From Azolla caroliniana (lineage: Eukaryota; Plantae; Polypodiophyta): a stretch of DNA of 12,063 bases. The notes beneath the pieces are model-generated. The model searched no databases and had not been told where the DNA came from. It saw nothing but the letters and a program-made list of their open reading frames with translations. A program made the position numbers and the translations under genes. The DNA is taken from assembly GCA_043228905.1 (NCBI GenBank), contig JBHGNT010001099.1:1-12063 (forward strand). Reading direction: 5' to 3'. Shown one piece after another: positions 1,915 through 12,063 of the stretch; within the stretch, counting starts at the first letter, position 1; each line of letters starts with the position of its first letter.

Positions 1915-2280
1915 ATTGAGATCATATTTAAGTAGCACAGGATGCTACTCTTGGAGAAGAAGATAGACCTCCTTGAGCAAGTAGTGGTCATATGTCGCGT
2001 GGTGGGAGCATGTCCGAATAGAGGGTTGCATCAAGATATACTACAAGGAAAAAACCACCCACCAATAGGTGGAAGGGGTTTTATCTAATCGTCTTGGAGG
2101 ACAAGGACTCTACAAAGAAACTCATAGCAATGTCCCCTTGCCACATCCAAAACACACAAATGTTTTTTGCACAAATGGGTACATGGTTTTAATCCAGTGA
2201 CAGGCGCACAGCTAGAAGATTCAATGAAAAAGGTAATGATGTTGTTTCTTGGTTTATTTTTGGAATACAATGCTTCCCAC
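1915..2280 (+). pseudogene. Frameshifted relic resembling L1-type LINE ORF1 (DUF4283-like domain)
   Basis: Joining frames gives LLEQVVVICRVVG ... GFYLIVLEDKDSTKKLIAMSP ... CFLHKWVHGFNP ... KVMMLFLGLFLEY. This follows the order of plant LINE ORF1 motifs (G.F.I.F....D...VL..GPW; W.PGF.P; VWV..PGLPLEY). It is absent from the ORF track because of the frameshifts. Confidence 0.55.
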
Positions 2281-2299
2281 TATTGGAAATTCCTTCGAA

Positions 2300-4090
2300 A
2301 TGATGTTGTACGCAACGACTAACGGAAGCAGAAGCCGAGCGATCAGAAATCGTTGAATTCGGCATGTCACTTGAAGGACTAGTGGCAAGATGGCATGAGA
2401 AGCACCTCCTGAGAAGCTTCGCACTAGTCAAACAATTTATACGACATATCAAGAAGCCAACGAGGCCATTCCCCAATTTATCATTTGGTTTCAGACATTG
2501 AATAATCATCTTACAAGGGCATCCCTAGAGGATGAAGCAAAGGGAGTCTTTTTTGCTGCGCTCCGGGAGCCACTCTGGACAATGCTTATAGTGTTGTATT
2601 TCCGACAGAACACCAGCAATAAAGTCATTGATCGGGTTCTTGACATGGATCGAGCCCAAAACGGAAACTACATGGCGATGGGGGCCTTGCAACATGTGCT
2701 ACCGAGAGAGGAGGATGTGCAATTTAGGCAAGCATTGCAGTGCACAACGTGTCTCAACCCCGAACATTCCACACTAGAATGCACCATGAGCACCCAATGC
2801 ATGTTGTGTCACACTCGGTCACACTCCATGGACCAGTGTGAGTACAATTTATTAAATCGGCAGGCATCATCGGTCTTACAGATGGAGCTCCGAGACGACC
2901 AACGACTAGAGGAGGAGCGGTTCCGATGAGAGAACTCTTACGATGACAGACAAAGAGAGGATTATGTTTGGGACCGCTATGAACGAGATTACTCGCTAGA
3001 TTATGACTAGAAAAGAGGCGAAATATGGTACTTGGAGAGGCAAGGATACCACAACCGGAGAAACCCGAATAATAGAAGGGGGAATTTCTGATAGGATCAG
3101 CATCGGGAGTAAAACCGGGAATACCGTCGGGGACTGGACACGAATCCGTCCACCCCACAACCGGAGTAGCGAAGGACGGAGGAGGAAAACAAGATGGCTT
3201 CCAGCATCCAACTGGGTAATGCCGAAAAGGGAGAATCGAGTGGTATCCGGAAATTATATTGTTACTATTGTCGGCAAGAAGGCCACTACAATAGCCAGTG
3301 CCCGGTAAAGACCAAGGAGAAACAACCGACAGTGAATTGAGTGGTGACTACCAAGGTGATGGATGTTTAACAAGTCATGACACGGTCCAAAGGGAGGGCT
3401 GCAAAGTGGGAGACCCAAGAAGCAATCCGGACGCAGGCCACAGAATGGATACAACATGCCAATCAAAGGAACACGGACAAATTGAAATAATAGGCCAAGT
3501 TACCAAAAGAAACGATTGGGAGCACCGACAACAACCCAACCTAGTAGGCCTTACAACAATGTAAGATTATGTTGCCACTATGCCGACTCTTGCAGTTGGT
3601 TCCCAGATTTATGGAAGGGTTAAAATTGGCATTGTCACCACAAAATCCGGCGTCATCACCCTCATTTTTCACAAATCCAGGGGAAGGATCGGCCATAGTG
3701 GACACAAATAGTTCGGCAGTGACAACCATCATAAAGGGAAACGAGGTACCCGTAACGATTATAGATGGAGGATCTAGCGTGAATATGATCATCCGACGGA
3801 CTTGCGATATGCAGGGCATCCGACATTGGGAACCGTGCCCATTCTGGATACATATGACAGATACAAGTTTGGTTCGGCCAACCGGATTAATCCGGAACCT
3901 TGAAGTCACGATCGAAGGACATGCGTTCTGGATTTCAACAATACTATTGCAACTCAATGCGACGGGAGCATATCCTCTATTAGTAGGAAGACCGTGGCTG
4001 AAGACAGTGCACATTAAACAAAATTGGCAAAAGAACGTGATCACTTTCTGACGAGGAAAAACCAAAGTCAGGGTACCAACACATGAACGG
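2300..4090 (+). pseudogene. gag: Relic A: degenerate Ty3/Gypsy gag plus aspartic protease
   Basis: Capsid-like EFGMSLEGLVARW; CCHC knuckles CTTCLNPEHSTLEC and CMLCHTRSHSMDQC (2741-2839) and CYYCRQEGHYNSQC (3260-3301); protease IIDGGSSVNMI (Asp codon 3764) and YPLLVGRPWL. Contains several stops and frameshifts, and is cut at 4090 by the LTR of element B. Confidence 0.8.
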
Positions 4091-5009
4091 TGTCATGAAG
4101 GATTCCAGCCATAGAGAGAGACATAGCCCGATGCGCGTGAACAGGTGTGCACGGTTGCACACAAATTAAGTGATATGTACAAACATATGTGAATACTATA
4201 GTGTTAGTTTAGTGTTGGTGATTACTAGGTAGGTGTGAATGATAGGTACTTTATGGTCACACAATTAAAGGAATAACGGTGATTGAGTGGAGGAGATCGA
4301 GCAAAGAACTAGGAGGACAGAAAACGATTGCCTTTATTGATGATTTAACGACTTCCCCTTGTTCTATAAAAGGGGAGGTTAGAGGTTGTTTTAGGGATCC
4401 ACGATTTGGAGGACGAAGTGTTGTTGGTTTGAGTGTCGAGCTCTCTCTCTCTCCCTCCCTCCCTCGCTCTTTGTTTTGTGTTCCGTGCTGATTCGGGAAA
4501 GAAGGTGAAGCCTCTGCTCCCTCAAGAAGCCTGTGGGCTCCCGACTAGAGGTTCATCATTTTGTGCATGTTTGTGGTGGTCGTAGTTCAAAGCACCATTG
4601 TTGACCAAGTCCGGTTGTATTCTTTCGTTTTCTGTTAATCATTAGTGTTTTGTTGTGTCTCTTCTTGTGTTTGGGTATTCCTGCGTGGTTCCTACTTGTT
4701 GCAGTTTGCTACGCCTCGAGATCGTGTCATTATTCTCATTATGTTCCTATTGTGCACGCGTCCGAGTCCGTGAGCCTATGAGCTCATTGTTGTTGTTTGG
4801 CATTCCGACCAAAACAATACACTTCTTCAGGCCCATGCGCTAACCGGCCGGGATCCGGGAATCGTTCGGATTGGATACGCATCTCGAAACTAAACCAGCA
4901 AAGCTATCAAGACGTCGTTTCACGCCGCCATTCACCCTTACCGACTCCTTAGTATGATATCCCAGTGGTCCTGCCCCCTTTCTACACATCCACGTAGAAT
5001 ACCGCGACA
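4091..5009 (+). mobile_element. 5' LTR of older Gypsy element B (about 919 bp)
   Basis: Begins TGTCATGAAG (compare TGTCGTGAAG of D) and ends CGCGACA (compare CACGACA of D). TATAAAA at 4365-4371 is followed by a CT-rich tract at about 4441-4470. A PBS-like site and gag come directly after, and it interrupts relic A. Confidence 0.7.
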
Positions 5010-5013
5010 TCTT

Positions 5014-5031
5014 TGGTAAACCCAAAATGAA
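5014..5031 (+). promoter_or_regulatory. Degenerate primer-binding site (tRNA-Trp type) of element B
   Basis: TGGTAAACCCAAAATGAA matches the D PBS TGGTGAACCCGACGTGAA at 14 of 18 positions (three G>A, one C>A). It lies 4 nt after the LTR end. Confidence 0.65.
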
Positions 5032-5051
5032 GGCAGCAAAAGAGTCTGAAG

Positions 5052-6103
5052 ATGAGGGGAAACGAACTGGCTGAAGTAATGGCGGTGATTGTCGACTGTC
5101 TGGTTAACGCTCGTGAAAGCACCAATGGGCTCTACAAGTCCGTAGAAACAATACTAGGCATGACAGGACGTTTCAACGGGAAGGATGTCACGAACTACCT
5201 CGACGCCTTCAAGGCCGAGATGTTGATGAGGGATATTCCAGACGATAGACGGTTGTCCGCATTTCCCCGAGTTGTTACGCCGAGCATCCACGCAGAGGTG
5301 CTCGAGTTGCAGGCCGACTGCCGAACTTGGCCGGAGTTCAAGGAGTGGCTCCTTCTATGACTTGATCCGGTTGTCAGAGAGGGAGCTGATGAAGTGGGTC
5401 AAGAGCCCTAGTGACGGGACGAGCAGATTGGCGCTCCTCCAAGAGTTTGAAAGACGATTCAATGTGCTACTCTCGGTGCTAAACCGGACCATGCTCAATA
5501 CAAGCAAGGTCCTGTTGTTTATCAAGTAGGTCGATGTGCTCGATCAAGAGAAGGTTGGCCTCCCATTGGATACAGAAGAAGGGGCACGACTAATTGGGCC
5601 GTGGTAAAAAGGGTTTGTAGCCGTTTCGACAAACGGGGAGAACGGAATGACTCGGGACCTCGACGGTTGGCTCAGTCGCTGGGAAAAAGCCGGATGAATT
5701 GATTCCAACACGATCGAGGGAGACACCAAGATGGATCGAGTAGGGCAAGGTACCGGCCGACGTGGTGAAAGGACCATCCGGGGGCACAACTCTAGAGGAG
5801 CTAACAAAGATGGTAAGAGACCTTCATATTTCCCAAGCCTGGAGGGAGGGTGGCGGCCAAACGCGCGATCGGCGCCCACCGAACGACCAGAGGTACATGT
5901 GGTGTGACGCCGTCCGCCACATGCGGAGAGAGTGCACCAATTTCGCTGAAGCACTCAAGAACAATGTTGTGTACCTCTGGAACGGAGGGGTGCATGCATG
6001 TGACACGCAAAGGCCTCTCGGGGTGAACACCAGACAAGGTTGCATGAAGAGGCTAATGGAGGCCATTCACTACTCGGTGTCGGCAGGGATCCCGGTAGGT
6101 TGA
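5052..6103 (+). pseudogene. gag: Broken gag of element B, homologous to the Gag of element D
   Basis: B versus D: GRFNGKDVTNYL/GMFDGTNISKYV; KVLLFIK/KVALFLQ; LEELTKMVRDL/LDDLVQSMKDL; RYMWCDAVRHMRREC/RCMWCDSLEHRLRDC; HYSVSAG/YYSATAG. Has frameshifts and stops and is truncated before the protease. Confidence 0.85.
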
Positions 6104-6112
6104 GATAAGGGC

Positions 6113-7628
6113 CTCCCCCTCAAGTTTGGGATATCGAGCTATTGCACACCAAGTGCACCGGAAAATTACCGCAAATTGTCAAAGCCGAGGGGTTCAATGA
6201 AGATATCGGCCACCTGCCGATCCATTGGAACTAGCAGCAGTTCCACCTCACCGGAGAGAATGCGCTCTCGAACCAGATGGTAGTGCACCTCGATGTGCTT
6301 TGTCCGGGCGTGAAAGACGGGGTTCTTGGCCAATTGGATGTTGCTGAGGTTGTCATAGTAGATCGTTGTCAAATCAAACACCTCCACACGCAGATCCTTC
6401 AGGAGCCTCTTGAGCCATATGGCTTCGCATGTGGCGACAACCGCTCCTCGGTACTTGGCCTTTGTGCTCGACAGTGCTACTATCAGCTGCTTCTTGCTAC
6501 TCCAGGCGACCACGACACTTCCAAGTGAAAACGCATATCTGGCCCAATCGGCATCTGTGCAGATCACTTCGATCACAAGGACGTAATGAAGGTATTCTAG
6601 ATCCTTCATCTCAAATGATACCGCGAGCTGGGATTTGACGCGGCCGATTTCGTCCAAGTCAGAACCGACGATGACAAGATCATCCACATAGAGCAATATG
6701 CTCACCGGCCCATTCTAACCTTGCCGAATGAAAAGTGAATAGTCTGATTTCGACGGAGGAAACCCCATTCGATGCAGTCTCTACGTGATCTTCGCGTTCT
6801 AGTCGGGCAGGGCTTGCTTAAGTCCGTAGAGGGACTTCTTCAATCGGCACACAGCTGATATGTTCATCCCGAACTGAAATCCTGGGGTTGAACCATATAC
6901 ACCTACTCTTGATTATCACCTTGCAGGAACGTGTTCTTTATATCCATCTGATGTAGATGCCACACCTTTGACACGGCCACCATAAGCAAGACACAGATGG
7001 TCGTCATCTTTTTGACCGGCATGAACGTCTCATCGTAGTTGATGTCGTGCTACTGCGCATAGCCTTTGGCCACTACCCAGGCCTTGTACCGGTTGATAGA
7101 GCCATTGGTGTTGTATTTGACCTTGTATACCCACCGGCAACCAATCCACTTCATTCCATTCGGTACGTCCACTAAATCCCATGTCACATTTTCCTTGAGT
7201 GCGTGCATCTCTTCCTCCATGGCCTTCTGCCAGTTCGGATCTCTAGCCGCTTCTACATAGCTCTCCGACTCACGCACGGCTGCCACCTTCATCATGTACG
7301 CATAATGATGCGCCATATACTCATTGTACACCTACCTCTTTACGGGGTTTTCCTAGCGGGTGGATTGGCGCAATTCCTGATTTGCCGATTTCGTGGCCTC
7401 CTTGGCCGATTCCAACCTCTTCCTCGGAGGTGCCTGTTCGGTTCTGTCGGAGTCGGATTCGCTCTGATCCGACTCGGCTCGGCTGGTATCTCCTCGGTTT
7501 CTTGCGCGGGGAGAGCACAACCGAGTCTTCACTACTCTCCGGCTCATCATCCGGTTGACCGCTCTGGCTCAACCAGTACGGGTTCGGTCCACTCATTCAG
7601 AGAGAAGTCGGATTATCCGGCTATCCGG
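6113..7628 (-). pseudogene. pol: Relic C: Ty1/Copia pol (integrase-RT linker, RT, RNase H) ending at a polypurine tract
   Basis: Minus-strand motifs W..AMEEEM.AL..N.TW.LV, CRWVYKVK, RYKA..VAKGYAQ, HQMDIKN.FLQG, LKKSLYGLKQA, YVDD (6679-6690), DADWA, W.SKKQ..VALSST, NPVFHARTKHIEV.YH, ADIF, then TTGAGGGGGAG (6123-6113). Contains stops, frameshifts and internal deletions. Confidence 0.93.
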
Positions 7629-7796
7629 TGTCGTGAAGTACGAAAGCTTCACATTAAAAGTCTACAATAAGATAAATACGTAACTAAAATAACATTTGAT
7701 AATGTTTTATAACAACACATATGATAATATTATATATATGTAAAGAAAAATAATATATATATATAGATAAATATATTATATTACACGAACAAGAGA

Positions 7797-7850
7797 GGAC
7801 TTGAACCAATAACCCCACCCTATGACTCTCAAATCTTACCATTTACTCTA
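7797..7850 (-). promoter_or_regulatory. tRNA-like Pol III A-box/B-box module 1 in the LTR (copy at 11233-11286)
   Basis: Minus strand: TAGAGTAAATGG, 31 nt, GGTTCAAGTCC. A T5 run lies downstream (7750-7746) and TATATATAAA upstream (7890-7881). Confidence 0.5.
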
Positions 7851-7954
7851 TACTAGTAATATACATAAAATAAAGCATACTTTATATATACTTTATATTA
7901 CATAAAGGATTTGCTTCATGATATAAAAATAAAGTTGTATGTTGTAGTATTTTG

Positions 7955-8008
7955 AGACTCGAACCAACAACCTCATACACCAAAGTCAACACACCTACCA
8001 TTAAGCTA
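7955..8008 (-). promoter_or_regulatory. tRNA-like Pol III A-box/B-box module 2 in the LTR (copy at 11391-11444)
   Basis: Minus strand: TAGCTTAATGG (fits TRGCNNARYGG), 32 nt, GGTTCGAGTCT. A T5 run lies downstream (7929-7925). Confidence 0.6.
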
Positions 8009-8191
8009 GGCCCTTTCTCTTTAAGATTATATTTTCATGTTTATTGTTATTGCATATATTGTTTCATACATAAAAGCTCAAATGAGCGAGATGTTTATCA
8101 TGCATCACATGTAATGCATGAACGCCAAATGGCGATCATGCATCACAGGCATGTCTTGTACCCTCCAATGCATCATATGCATGGGGGCACC

Positions 8192-8199
8192 TATTTAAA
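8192..8199 (+). promoter_or_regulatory. Candidate LTR TATA box (TATTTAAA; copy at 11628-11635)
   Basis: CTATTTAAAG in mid-LTR, just after the CATG-rich block and before a purine-rich stretch. Confidence 0.45.
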
Positions 8200-8318
8200 G
8201 GGTGAAAGAGGAGATCAAAGGGGGATATGTATGAGATATCAATCAAATTATGTACTTCATAAGAGATACCATAAAAATAGAGAAAGAGGGGAAGAAGTTT
8301 AACATAAACGTGGAGCTC

Positions 8319-8372
8319 TAGCTTGGCGGTCGTGGTGGTCAACTCTCAACAAGAGGGAGGCGGTTCGAGATT
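8319..8372 (+). promoter_or_regulatory. tRNA-like Pol III A-box/B-box module 3 in the LTR (copy at 11755-11808)
   Basis: GGAGCTC then TAGCTTGGCGG, 32 nt, then GGTTCGAGATT (5' LTR) or GATTCGAGCCT (3' LTR). Combining the two copies gives GGTTCGAGCCT. Confidence 0.5.
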
Positions 8373-8730
8373 TATCTTCATCAAAATATTGAAGTGAAGA
8401 TTGTAATGGTCTACGATCAAGAAAGAGAACAGCGATTACCTTGCAAGACAAAGTTCGGAGGTTCAACAATGTGCACAATCATTTTGTAACTCTTTCATGA
8501 AAATGATTATAAAGTTCATACACTTTCTCATATATTATTTTATATCTTATCTTGTCTTATCTTATATTCCTTAAAAATCCTATTTTGTCATAACTTATTG
8601 ATCTCTATTCACTCTATCTCTACTCTTTCGTCTCTTCCGTCAATAATCCCAGTGATTCCTTCCTCACTTTCACGTTATCCTTTGTGTGCGCAACGCTACG
8701 CTTCTAGGCGAGCCACGCCACGACACAAAT

Positions 8731-8748
8731 TGGTGAACCCGACGTGAA
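8731..8748 (+). promoter_or_regulatory. Primer-binding site complementary to the 3' end of cytosolic tRNA-Trp
   Basis: TGGTGAACCCGACGTGAA is the reverse complement of TTCACGTCGGGTTCACCA, the recalled 3' end of plant tRNA-Trp(CCA). It lies 5 nt after the LTR end. Confidence 0.85.
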
Positions 8749-8792: not shown

Positions 8793-11024
8793 ATGGCAAG
8801 TACGAGTACAATGGATCCGGTAATGTTGTTTATTGAAAAGTTGAATCAAGATCGATTATTTCATGCCTTACGAGAAGTCCGAGAGAAGATTGGTATGTTT
8901 GATGGCACAAATATTTCGAAGTATGTGAATATATATTATGATGAAATGGAAATGTCTGGTATAAATGATGTCAATATGATAGCAAACTTGTATAAATTAG
9001 TGGACATGGAATTGAGAGATAGAATTCATGAAATACAAGCATTGCATAGTTTGGATTGGAATGCATTCAAAGAAGCACTTGTGTCTGAATATGCTCGTGA
9101 GGATTTCTCTCGAGTTACTATGCGTTCATTTCATGAATGGATCTTAAAAGAAGATAAAGGGTTATCTGTGGCTGACACAAAAAAAGAGTTTGATAGGATG
9201 TATGGACACTTAAAGCCAGAAGAAAGAAATTATTTGTCTTGGCAAAAGGTTGCTTTATTTTTGCAGGCAATTGACAAGAGATATAGAAAAGAATTGGAAT
9301 TTATGCTTGAAGTACCAAATACCGAGGATGGTATAACGACAGATTGGAATGAGGTAACAAATGCTTGTAATAAATTTATGAAAAGAATGCAAAGGAATGG
9401 TGTAATGCTACAAATACCACATGTGGGAAACACAAATCGGCTTGAGCAAAACATTGAAGTTCAAAGACTTGGTCGAGAACCATCACAGGAAATGGTCCAT
9501 CAACCACGAGAAATGACGGGAACTAAGAGTGAGTTTTTGCTTGATGATTTAGTTCAAAGTATGAAAGATCTAACAATTAAAGTGGCAAAGCTTGAGAATG
9601 GTCAGACTTCGAGGTCAAGGGAACCATTTCGACCTCGATGCATGTGGTGTGATAGTCTCGAACATCGTCTACGTGATTGTGAAGAATATAAAGACATGGA
9701 GAATCGGGACTTGGTCTATTGGAAAAATGGTAACATTTACTTAACTGAAACTAGAACTCCGCTTACAAAGAACTTTGGTGATGGTGGTGTTAAGGTTAAA
9801 TTTGAAGAAGCTGAAGCAAAGAAGGCTTCCGCAATGTATTACTCGGCAACGGCAGGAATGCGCCTCGATGACATGCCATCCCGATCATCATTCTGGGAGA
9901 AGGTTGTAAGTACCGCACAAAAGCAAAAGATGAAGATGGAAGACCTTCGTGTTGCCGGAGATTTTGTGAGGAAAAACACTGGATGGGATGTTCCAGTAGA
10001 TGTTATGACAGTCTATGCTCAAATGGCAGAACACCAAGAGCATGAGGTGATAGTGGAAGAAAAAAGGAAAAGATCGGATGATGAGATTGGCTCAACCAAA
10101 AAGCATGAAACAAGAGAAAGCAAAAGAAAAGAGATGGACGCAAAAGTTGAAAAAGGTAAATCTGGTCCTTCATTCAAATTAATGTCTGATATTGAAAAGG
10201 ATACAAATTTAAAGAAAGTTTTAGAAACAAGAATACTAGACAGTCGAGTAGAATTTACACTAAGAGAAGTGTTAGGTATTGCAAAAAAGGAATTTCATGA
10301 TGAAATAATTGATATTGTGCGAAGAAAGAAGCAAGTAAATGAGCAGGTTAAAGAGACAAATCCGAAGGTGGCATATGAAGTGGTGAGCAACGAGTCAAAC
10401 AATATCGTTGTTGACTCTCAACATGCATCAACCTCAATGATAAATTCAACAGATGTAAGAAGCCATTACTGTTGCAAATGTTGGGCAAGAGCCACTACTG
10501 AGACTCATGTGAAGATTGGAAATGTTCCAGACCCCGTAATGGCACTTATTGATCATGGTTCTGAAATAAATATAATGAGTGCTGATTTTTACAGGAAAGG
10601 TAGATGGCCAATTGATACTCAACATGGTTGGCGAGTAAAAGCTGCCACATCAGTCACGGAAGATTTATTTGGTGCATGCCCAAATGTAAAGGTTACTATT
10701 GGTGATATAGAGGTAGATCAACATTTCTTTGTGCAGGAAGGATCTACCTATCCAATAATCCTGGGGCAACCATACATTACAGCGGTACGAATGGAGACCA
10801 AAGTCCTCGACAATGGTTCTGCCTATGCAAAAATCCGTAGCCAAGATGGACGACGAACTGTACAATTTATGACAGTTCGCCCAAATCATGAGAGGAACAA
10901 GGTAGACCTTCGAGATCATTCGATACCAAAAGAATTTGGTACTTGGAAAGAGAATAAATTTTTTTTAAAAAGAAGGTTCGAGCTTGAACCTCCTCCAATA
11001 GATCAACATGAAGATGAAAGATAG
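8793..11024 (+). CDS. gag: Intact Gag-aspartic protease polyprotein (743 aa) of element D
   Basis: Uninterrupted ATG-to-TAG ORF with a capsid-like N-terminus, CCHC knuckle CMWCDSLEHRLRDC (9639-9680), basic stretches (EEKRKRS), and retropepsin motifs ALIDHGSEINIM (Asp codon 10551) and YPIILGQPY. Confidence 0.92.
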   Translation: MASTSTMDPVMLFIEKLNQDRLFHALREVREKIGMFDGTNISKYVNIYYDEMEMSGINDVNMIANLYKLVDMELRDRIHEIQALHSLDWNAFKEALVSEYAREDFSRVTMRSFHEWILKEDKGLSVADTKKEFDRMYGHLKPEERNYLSWQKVALFLQAIDKRYRKELEFMLEVPNTEDGITTDWNEVTNACNKFMKRMQRNGVMLQIPHVGNTNRLEQNIEVQRLGREPSQEMVHQPREMTGTKSEFLLDDLVQSMKDLTIKVAKLENGQTSRSREPFRPRCMWCDSLEHRLRDCEEYKDMENRDLVYWKNGNIYLTETRTPLTKNFGDGGVKVKFEEAEAKKASAMYYSATAGMRLDDMPSRSSFWEKVVSTAQKQKMKMEDLRVAGDFVRKNTGWDVPVDVMTVYAQMAEHQEHEVIVEEKRKRSDDEIGSTKKHETRESKRKEMDAKVEKGKSGPSFKLMSDIEKDTNLKKVLETRILDSRVEFTLREVLGIAKKEFHDEIIDIVRRKKQVNEQVKETNPKVAYEVVSNESNNIVVDSQHASTSMINSTDVRSHYCCKCWARATTETHVKIGNVPDPVMALIDHGSEINIMSADFYRKGRWPIDTQHGWRVKAATSVTEDLFGACPNVKVTIGDIEVDQHFFVQEGSTYPIILGQPYITAVRMETKVLDNGSAYAKIRSQDGRRTVQFMTVRPNHERNKVDLRDHSIPKEFGTWKENKFFLKRRFELEPPPIDQHEDER

Positions 11025-11052: not shown

Positions 11053-11064
11053 AGAGGGGGTGGA
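11053..11064 (+). promoter_or_regulatory. Polypurine tract of element D
   Basis: AGAGGGGGTGGA directly before the TG of the 3' LTR. Confidence 0.85.
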
Positions 11065-12063
11065 TGTCGTGAAGTACGAAAGCTTCACATTAAAAGTCTA
11101 CAATAAGATAAATACGTAACTAAAATAACATTTGATAATGTTTTATAACAACACATATGATAATATTATATATATGTAAAGAAAAATAATATATATAGAT
11201 AGATAAATATATTATATTACACGAACAAGAGAGGACTTGAACCAATAACCCCACCCTATGACTCTCAAATCTTACCATTTACTCTATACTAGTAATATAC
11301 ATAAAATAAAGCATACTTTATATATACTTTATATTACATAAAGGATTTTCTTCATGATATAAAAATAAAGTTGTATGTTGTAGTATTTTGAGACTCGAAC
11401 AAACAACCTCATACACCAAAGTCAACACACCTACCATTAAGCTAGGCCCTTTCTCTTTAAGATTATATTTTCATGTTTATTGTTATTGCATATATTGTTT
11501 CATACATAAAAGCTCAAATGAGCGAGATGTTTATCATGCATCACATGTAATGCATGAACGCCAAATGACGATCATGCATCACAGGCATGTCTTGTACCCT
11601 CCAATGCATCATATGCATGGGGGCACCTATTTAAAGGGTGAAAGAGGAGATCAAAGGGGGATATGTATGAGATATCAATCAAATTATGTACTTCATAAGA
11701 GATACCATAAAAATAGAGAAAGAGGGGAAGAAGTTTAACATAAACGTGGAGCTCTAGCTTGGCGGTCGTGGTGGTCAACTCTCAACAAGAGGGAGGCGAT
11801 TCGAGCCTTATCTTCATCAAAATATTGAAGTGAAGATTGTAATGGTCTACGATCAAGAAAGAGAAGAGCGATTACCTTGCAAGACAAAGTTCGGAGGTTC
11901 AACAATGTGCACAATCATTTTGTAACTCTTTCATGAAAATGATTATAAAGTTCATACACTTTCTCATATATTATTTTATATCTTATCTTGTCTTATCTTA
12001 TATTCCTTAAAAATCCTATTTTGTCATAACTTATTGATCTCTATTCACTCTATCTCTACTCTT
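11065..12063 (+). repeat. 3' LTR of element D (cut by the window end)
   Basis: Colinear with 7629-8627 with no indels seen. Differences at 11198, 11349, 11401, 11568, 11799, 11806, 11807 and 11866. Confidence 0.95.

Follow-up and report, generated by a model that had tools for sequence, protein, structure and literature searches.

tRNA-type A- and B-box modules in LTRs of numerous families within a protein-coding Gypsy lineage

The element and its surroundings

The window, the whole 12,063-bp stretch of Azolla caroliniana DNA analysed here (GenBank assembly GCA_043228905.1, contig JBHGNT010001099.1), opens with the 3' exons of a plant glutamate-receptor-like gene (1-990; Pfam Lig_chan, E 4.5e-10). 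Positions 2200-4080 hold disrupted frames that resemble the gag and protease of a further Gypsy-type element, with no Pfam match at E ≤ 0.1. They are followed by a second Phygy-like LTR (4090-4992), which has an ACGG flank and a decayed primer-binding site (PBS) near 4997 and lacks an A/B-box module, then by a broken gag (5031-6100), and finally by a Copia reverse transcriptase/RNase H remnant (RVT_2) on the minus strand at 6088-7628. A Phygy-type element appears to have inserted at CCGG into this Copia remnant, and its features are as follows, where a module is a pair of A and B boxes.

7629..8725, plus strand: 5' LTR, 1,097 bp, with ends TGTCGTG...CACGACA and CCGG directly before it (an NCGN target)
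7746..7750, minus strand: T5 run 47 nt past module 1, candidate Pol III terminator
7797..7850, minus strand: module 1, with A box at 7850-7839 (shifted or decayed, the weakest of the three), B box at 7807-7797 and GGGT at tRNA positions 44-47
7899..7930, plus strand: likely older LTR start inside the LTR, corresponding to the LTR starts of the related loci L005, L007 and L035, with loose ends at 7901 and 7905
7925..7929, minus strand: T5 run 26 nt past module 2, candidate terminator
7955..8008, minus strand: module 2, with a perfect A box at 8008-7998, a 32-nt spacer, AGGT at tRNA positions 44-47 and a perfect B box at 7965-7955
8095..8182, plus strand: array of CATGCA repeats, kept across related LTRs, that separates module 2 from the TATA box
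8191..8199, plus strand: predicted Pol II TATA box (a motif call), CTATTTAAA and then a purine-rich tract
8319..8372, plus strand: module 3, with A box at 8319-8329 (one mismatch), a 32-nt spacer and B box at 8362-8372
8482..8485, plus strand: first T4 run past module 3, 110 nt beyond its B box
8731..8748, plus strand: PBS, one and the same in the window and 44 of the 79 related loci
8793..11024, plus strand: 743-aa ORF in which Gag-protease continues in frame into the final residues of integrase
11053..11064, plus strand: polypurine tract (PPT)
11065..12063, plus strand: 3' LTR, running past the window end, with 8 mismatches against the 5' LTR over 999 nt

The window element, about 4.5 kb and protein-coding, belongs to a Phygy-type Gypsy family and has suffered an internal deletion; its full-length relative, L001, has an open pol. 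With L001 as the reference, ~3.4 kb of reverse transcriptase (RT)-RNase H-integrase sequence has been deleted near 10938, and this deletion places gag-protease in frame with the integrase C-terminus. L001 is the closest relative among the best 80 of 166 stretches (92% protein and 94.6% DNA identity to the window element); its pol frame spans 1,181 codons, and its gag contains a single stop. The pol of L001 matches RVT_1, RT_RNaseH, Integrase_H2C2 and rve and no other Pfam family at E ≤ 0.01, and the domain order is Gag, protease, RT, RNase H, integrase without a chromodomain or extra RNase H, as in Phygy. A 1,032-bp LTR and ~5.73 kb of internal sequence bring L001 to ~7.8 kb, inside the Phygy range. 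We take the PBS of the window element to be of the tRNA-Trp type. All five 5' flanks fixed by LTR matches fit NCGN (GCGG, CCGT, ACGT, CCGC and CCGG; L044 and L016 are omitted from this set as junction or false calls), and of the two 3' flanks, ACGT fits and CTGC does not; no element has both flanks.

Papers are cited here and below for the passages covered. In those of PMC6317226, Phygy is a non-chromovirus Ty3/gypsy lineage of Physcomitrella patens with a 4-bp NCGN target, a tRNA-Trp PBS in 81%, a length of 7.7-10.0 kb and no extra domain, and Pol III boxes in its LTRs are not mentioned. By these tabulated features (NCGN flanks, size, domain set and shared PBS), rather than by placement on a reference tree, the present element fits Phygy. 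The nearest named Gag relatives are two predicted proteins of P. patens (44% and 39%) and a Riccia protein (31%); on this basis the related families likely come from mosses.

The CATGCA array between module 2 and the TATA box is presumably RY-type, RY motifs being B3/ABI3 sites, and 42 of 64 columns are invariant across related LTRs in 8085-8148. P. patens RLG2, an element that need not belong to the present lineage, is ABA-induced (PMC7466625). A stop-free frame of 126 codons also runs across module 2 and the array in each LTR (7922-8302 and 11358-11738), and these frames are probably incidental.

Modules in the window LTR and among related families

A scan with consensus sequences that we assumed for the two boxes (A, TRGYNNARYGG; B, GGTTCRANYC; gaps 24-45 nt, up to 3 mismatches) recovers the three A/B-box pairs that the original prediction had reported in this LTR, with the positions and strands listed above, and in each of them 43 nt separate the initial T of the A box from the initial G of the B box. 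The T runs reported with them, T5 past modules 1 and 2 (7750-7746 and 7929-7925) and T4 at 8482-8485, are likewise present. Comparison with shuffled sequence had been proposed as a check, and the prediction withstands it: the LTR holds three distinct modules, and 1,000 dinucleotide shuffles average 0.149 and never reach three (0/1,000). It had further been claimed that modules 1 and 2 align with each other, which is true of the boxes and the stretch just 5' of the B box and does not extend to the spacer cores and flanks, where similarity is at shuffle level (P 0.75-0.82).

Module 2, the A box of which precedes the TATA box by 183 nt, is the sole perfect consensus match of the three, the other two carrying 2-3 mismatches, and module 3 lies in sense orientation 128 nt downstream of the TATA box. 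The 3' LTR holds copies of all three, with A boxes at 11286, 11444 and 11755. Damage to the B box of module 3 differs between the LTRs: the 5' copy has two mismatches and the 3' copy a change at G53. At positions 8370-8371 most of the depth in four public DNA runs carries the consensus letters C, C. Ten contig variants are listed over 246 bases, one of them in a box (7961) at a degenerate purine, and among 40 of 242 variants in a second set is one at 8004, a free A-box position. A run guessed to be RNA (X21) yielded a single short contig, 7905-7943, which leaves the modules uncovered and is uninformative on expression.

No tRNA is called by ARAGORN, either in the window or in the loci scanned (55/55 negative), and the window, its segment 7770-8040 and the module of L026 all lack an Rfam tRNA match at E ≤ 10; the Rfam scans of the window and 7770-8040 give no 5S match either. 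Because both tRNA searches are negative and the anticodon positions vary freely, no parent tRNA can be named.

The related loci come from a metagenome scan, which yielded 79 loci (best 80 of 166 confirmed stretches) with 32-92% identity to the Gag-protease of the window; they are collapsed repeat assemblies, mostly from one accession series. Their LTR segments, delimited by PBS, PPT and LTR ends, amount to 52,950 bases. A strict scan of the 79 loci and the window (at most 1 mismatch, gaps 24-45 nt, 433,010 bases) gives 22 matches, with gaps of 32 nt (n = 13), 33 nt (n = 6) and 37 nt (n = 3). All 19 matches with a 32- or 33-nt gap sit in LTRs, 17 in delineated segments and 2 in nested LTRs, and the three with a 37-nt gap are one coding site. 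Outside the LTRs, 74,078 non-coding bases hold no match with a 32- or 33-nt gap, the two 33-nt matches that fall there being those in nested LTRs, and a profile built from all seeds has 0 matches in 305,982 coding bases. A search of viral contigs found no relative.

For the distribution among families, we grouped the Gag proteins by eye into 18 clades on a quick IQ-TREE tree of 78 of the 80 rows (L074 and L077 were dropped as too short) and searched each clade with a leave-one-clade-out profile, at a module score of at least 20 that 0/100 shuffles of the same segment reached and with segments under 200 nt omitted. Modules are found in 10/18 clades; F05 is weak, F17 is not judgeable, and the profile finds no module in F03, F07, F11, F12, F13 and F18. 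When the modules are masked, the LTR segments form 24 single-linkage similarity clusters, 10 of which are module-bearing, and several of the module-less clusters are partial segments without the 5' part of the LTR. The LTR of L014/L015 has no module. The A/B modules thus recur in numerous families within this protein-coding Gypsy lineage, and since module-less clades and LTRs exist, the module is dispensable for the lineage. By eye, GC content, CpG and CATGCA counts do not separate module-bearing from module-less LTRs. In L060, an early-branching family, a perfect B box stands at the contig edge (6125-6220) with the A-box position off the contig.

The region from module 2 to the TATA box in the window is ~80% identical to L035 and L005, the Gags of which are 43-47% identical; LTR parts have been swapped between Gag clades, and therefore the clades are not independent samples and the tree cannot date the module. 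Since the LTRs of related families start at 7899-7930, the block with module 1 was probably added at the 5' end, and these LTRs appear, from their sequences, to grow by such block addition. Two antisense modules are also present in L001 and L005. On the single contig of L035, the two LTRs differ, 5241-5901 having a module and 11743-12385 none, which reflects either LTR exchange or an assembly chimera.

Conserved positions and arrangement around the TATA box

In tRNA numbering, the positions kept in 25 distinct modules are T8, G10, A14, G18, G19, A44-G45-G46-T47 and the B box. In-register identity between clusters is 0.86 at positions 44-47, 0.78 in the A box and 0.85 in the B box (the two box values being partly circular), and falls to 0.33 in the spacer and 0.27-0.33 in the flanks. 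Six LTRs that BLAST, not the motif search, had brought in have 11/12 invariant box columns and 4/4 of columns 44-47 unchanged, against 29/163 spacer and flank columns (Fisher P 3e-7, with columns treated as independent), and among 15 strict seeds not chosen on positions 44-47, GG45-46 occurs in 14/15 and A44 in 13/15. The expectation that the boxes would be more conserved than neighbouring LTR sequence is therefore borne out, both in the BLAST-found LTRs and over the 25 modules.

The tRNA fold has left no such trace. Over the 25 modules, pairing is at permutation level in the acceptor stem (67/175 vs 65.7), the D stem (46/100 vs 50.1), the anticodon stem (49/125 vs 51.3) and the T stem (52/100 vs 52.6), in agreement with the earlier description of tRNA-type Pol III promoter remnants in which the stems have decayed and the boxes and their spacing persist. 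T33 and A38, each kept in 18/25 modules, are unexplained by TFIIIC contacts, and L007 has kept both boxes and lost 11 nt of the spacer.

In yeast, TFIIIC makes a contact at G47, G45A weakens its binding 5-fold, changes at +44 to +47 alter transcription, and the A box is required for TFIIIB loading (PMC11724288). As the positions kept here are TFIIIC contacts and the stems are at chance, the modules fit DNA sites for TFIIIC/TFIIIB, not tRNAs, and the conservation pattern, judged by alignment, matches a TFIIIC DNA footprint rather than an RNA fold. Together, the A box, the B box, the tRNA spacing and positions 44-47 give the modules the sequence features of a Type 2 Pol III promoter (PMC11724288, PMC12409998). 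Because yeast TFIIIC tolerates spacings of 32-93 bp (PMC12409998), the fixed 32/33 nt may reflect descent from an intron-less tRNA gene as well as selection.

There are 1-3 modules per LTR, and of the 25 modules, 15 are antisense and 10 sense. Where the TATA motif is called strictly (9 LTRs), the closest module on its upstream side lies 137-215 nt away; six further LTRs with looser calls give 147-252 nt. This upstream module mostly faces away from the TATA box; it is sense in L018/L019/L057, L020 and L026. In the window, L001, L006 and L011, a second module lies 74-167 nt downstream of the TATA motif. A T4 run occurs within 50 nt of the B box in 15/25 modules, compared with 0.24-0.35 of random LTR windows (about 2x background), and in the remaining 10/25 there is none within that distance. 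CAA precedes 4/25 modules. The 25 predicted transcripts have a mean z of -0.38, with 3/25 below -2, and no shared fold.

Known Pol III-bearing LTRs and a possible role for the modules

The original prediction had called this LTR a candidate tRNA-type analogue of Cassandra. Cassandra is a non-coding plant TRIM with a 5S-derived Type 1 Pol III promoter that lies in sense orientation and drives its own RNA (PMC10886601); Pol III promoter elements in a plant LTR are common to both, whereas the window LTR has no 5S segment by Rfam. The comparison does not hold, since the window element is not a TRIM and two of its three modules are antisense, and the place of tRNA-type analogue is already taken by Helenus, or TRIMp3 (Kojima 2024, PMC10886601). 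Helenus elements are non-coding, 311-1,263 bp long and presumed to be Pol III-transcribed, and their LTRs contain a tRNA-like stretch with conserved A and B boxes, mostly without a working cloverleaf (PMC10886601). The LTRs described here share with Helenus the A/B boxes inside the LTR and the mostly lost cloverleaf, and Helenus-1_SMo of Selaginella has the same 32-nt register and AGGT before the B box (supplement of PMC10886601). Unlike Helenus, the present carriers encode Gag-Pol and have 1-3 modules per LTR, mostly antisense and beside a TATA box, and the window element lies outside the TRIM definition used for Helenus (non-coding, ~0.3-1.3 kb). Descent from Helenus-1_SMo was considered and rejected, as its PBS and 5-bp target duplication differ. 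Nor is there support for the idea that the modules arose through insertion at tRNA genes in the manner of Ty3: the flanks of the 55 loci scanned hold no tRNA gene, and the target is NCGN.

Two other systems offer partial parallels. Simian foamy virus, with a Pol II genome, has several A/B-box Pol III units in U3 that make hairpin pre-miRNAs (PMC3993851), and thus shares with the present elements multiple A/B-box Pol III units in an autonomous LTR element; in contrast to the virus, the modules have no conserved hairpin and have the spacing and positions 44-47 of tRNA genes. ETC sites are B-box sites without TFIIIB (PMC12409998; see also PMC3395662). By analogy, the modules would share with these sites and with tDNA insulators the use of TFIIIC sites as barriers whatever RNA is made, but they keep the A box, and the known cases in the passages covered are host loci of yeast and mammals rather than parts of a plant retrotransposon. 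A tRNA gene proper differs in its cloverleaf stems and anticodon, which the modules lack (ARAGORN and Rfam negative, stems at permutation level).

In the passages of PMC10886601 covered, one plant family is listed, autonomous partners are said to have to use Pol II and to be unlikely to share LTR sequence, and "not a few" Repbase LTRs match tRNA, of which only the TRIMs were followed; the terms "physcomit" and "moss" have 0 matches in its supplement. An earlier unpublished notice of such LTRs is possible because Kojima left the other tRNA-matching Repbase LTRs aside. Such modules are not described in the covered passages of PMC7466625, PMC13570524 and PMC13578239, and a literature search, with most subscription journals and the Repbase entries outside its scope, found no account of A/B boxes in moss or Phygy LTRs. 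Pol III boxes in LTRs are known for tiny non-coding elements and thought to transcribe the element; here they are conserved in protein-coding elements.

Protein-coding elements need a Pol II mRNA. Because the carriers are protein-coding and end-to-end Pol III transcription is not expected of them, the modules need another job. Our first-ranked reading, which was also among the original proposals and to which we give a probability of roughly 0.5, is that these tRNA-type promoter remnants are DNA sites for TFIIIC and TFIIIB that would hold the adjacent Pol II promoter of the LTR open, either as a barrier or as a nucleosome-free anchor that counters silencing. TFIIIC very probably binds the modules, as the kept positions match its known contacts. 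TFIIIB and Pol III would probably be loaded as well, because the A box and downstream T runs are also kept, and would make short unstructured RNAs of ~95-115 nt from modules 1 and 2. What benefits the element would be the bound complex itself, which would sit roughly a nucleosome's length before the TATA box, in most cases pointing away from it and in some families joined by a second site downstream; Pol II would remain the source of the genomic RNA. In yeast, heterochromatin is held back by tRNA genes and TFIIIC sites, and in human cells the two act as insulators (PMC12409998); this evidence from yeast and mammals would carry over to plant LTRs by analogy.

Several other readings have to be weighed against the barrier. 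That the boxes are chance matches in AT-rich LTR DNA might be suspected from the 2-3 mismatches in two of the three window modules and from the failure of every tRNA detector to fire, but none of the 1,000 shuffles reaches three modules, and LTRs that cannot be aligned with one another repeat the motif at the same spacing, which coding DNA does not, so that coincidence is barely credible. Hardly better placed is self-transcription of the element, also proposed originally, in which Pol III would start at module 3 and do what it does in Cassandra and is presumed to do in Helenus. Module 3 is indeed sense and inside the LTR, but such a transcript would have to pass 13 runs of T≥4 (4 of them T≥5), expected to halt Pol III, before the 3'-LTR copy of the module in the window and 23 in L001, the first of them 110 nt past the B box; several families have an antisense module only, and the encoded proteins require a Pol II mRNA. 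With these T runs and two of three modules antisense, the LTR-to-LTR Pol III path of Helenus is not found here on a test of the sequence. A neutral history, in which relics of tRNA-derived SINEs or tRNA pseudogenes were inserted in LTRs and spread by LTR exchange, would account for the patchy presence and mixed orientation of the modules, for the LTR parts swapped between Gag clades and for decayed copies such as window module 1 and L007. In Kojima's proposal, Helenus goes back to SINE insertion (PMC10886601), and the present modules may well have arisen in the same way. As relics, however, the boxes and positions 44-47 should not be far more conserved than the spacer and flanks, nor should 19/19 strict LTR matches keep the 32/33-nt gap despite many flank indels. 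There is also no shared SINE body in the 80 nt past the B box (3/216 between-cluster pairs at 24 or more vs 2 when shuffled, although an old decayed body would escape this comparison) and no free 32/33-nt match outside LTRs, in only 74 kb of control DNA; we regard neutrality as improbable.

Two functional alternatives are less remote, though we consider both unlikely. Full A and B promoters, a T4 run within 50 nt in 15/25 modules and the retention of T33 and A38 in 18/25 would suit Pol III genes with working short RNAs, for example small-RNA precursors or silencing decoys, comparable to the Pol III cassettes in simian foamy virus U3, and Pol III miRNA cassettes have been shown in the LTR of an autonomous retroelement, SFVagm (PMC3993851). 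A small-RNA product of the modules is possible, but its predicted transcripts share no fold (the mean z and 3/25 count above), the stems are at chance, and spacer identity between LTR clusters is 0.33, which makes a working RNA doubtful. Alternatively, the bound Pol III complex could tune the LTR promoter directly, by feeding TBP or open chromatin to the TATA box, or by dampening the promoter and shielding host genes from the CATGCA enhancer. The fixed distance of the modules from the TATA box with the conserved CATGCA array between, and the TFIIIC-dependent enhancer blocking by tRNA genes (PMC12409998), speak for such tuning, whereas the free orientation of the modules and the presence of TATA boxes, often with CATGCA repeats, in module-less LTRs speak against it; tuning and the barrier are inseparable by sequence alone.

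A more ambitious form of the barrier reading, which we put forward only tentatively, is that plant Gypsy elements of an autonomous lineage bring insulators derived from tRNA genes with them: the lineage would have captured tRNA promoters, lost every part out of reach of TFIIIC and set the remainder one nucleosome from its Pol II promoter, on both sides in some families, thereby escaping host silencing. If this is true, each insertion scatters TFIIIC barriers through the genome. If TFIIIC is bound, the modules would be a cis-encoded anti-silencing device made from a host housekeeping promoter, and an abundant repeat would be a source of dispersed TFIIIC sites, with the related families that have or lack the module offering a ready comparison for tDNA insulator action in plants.
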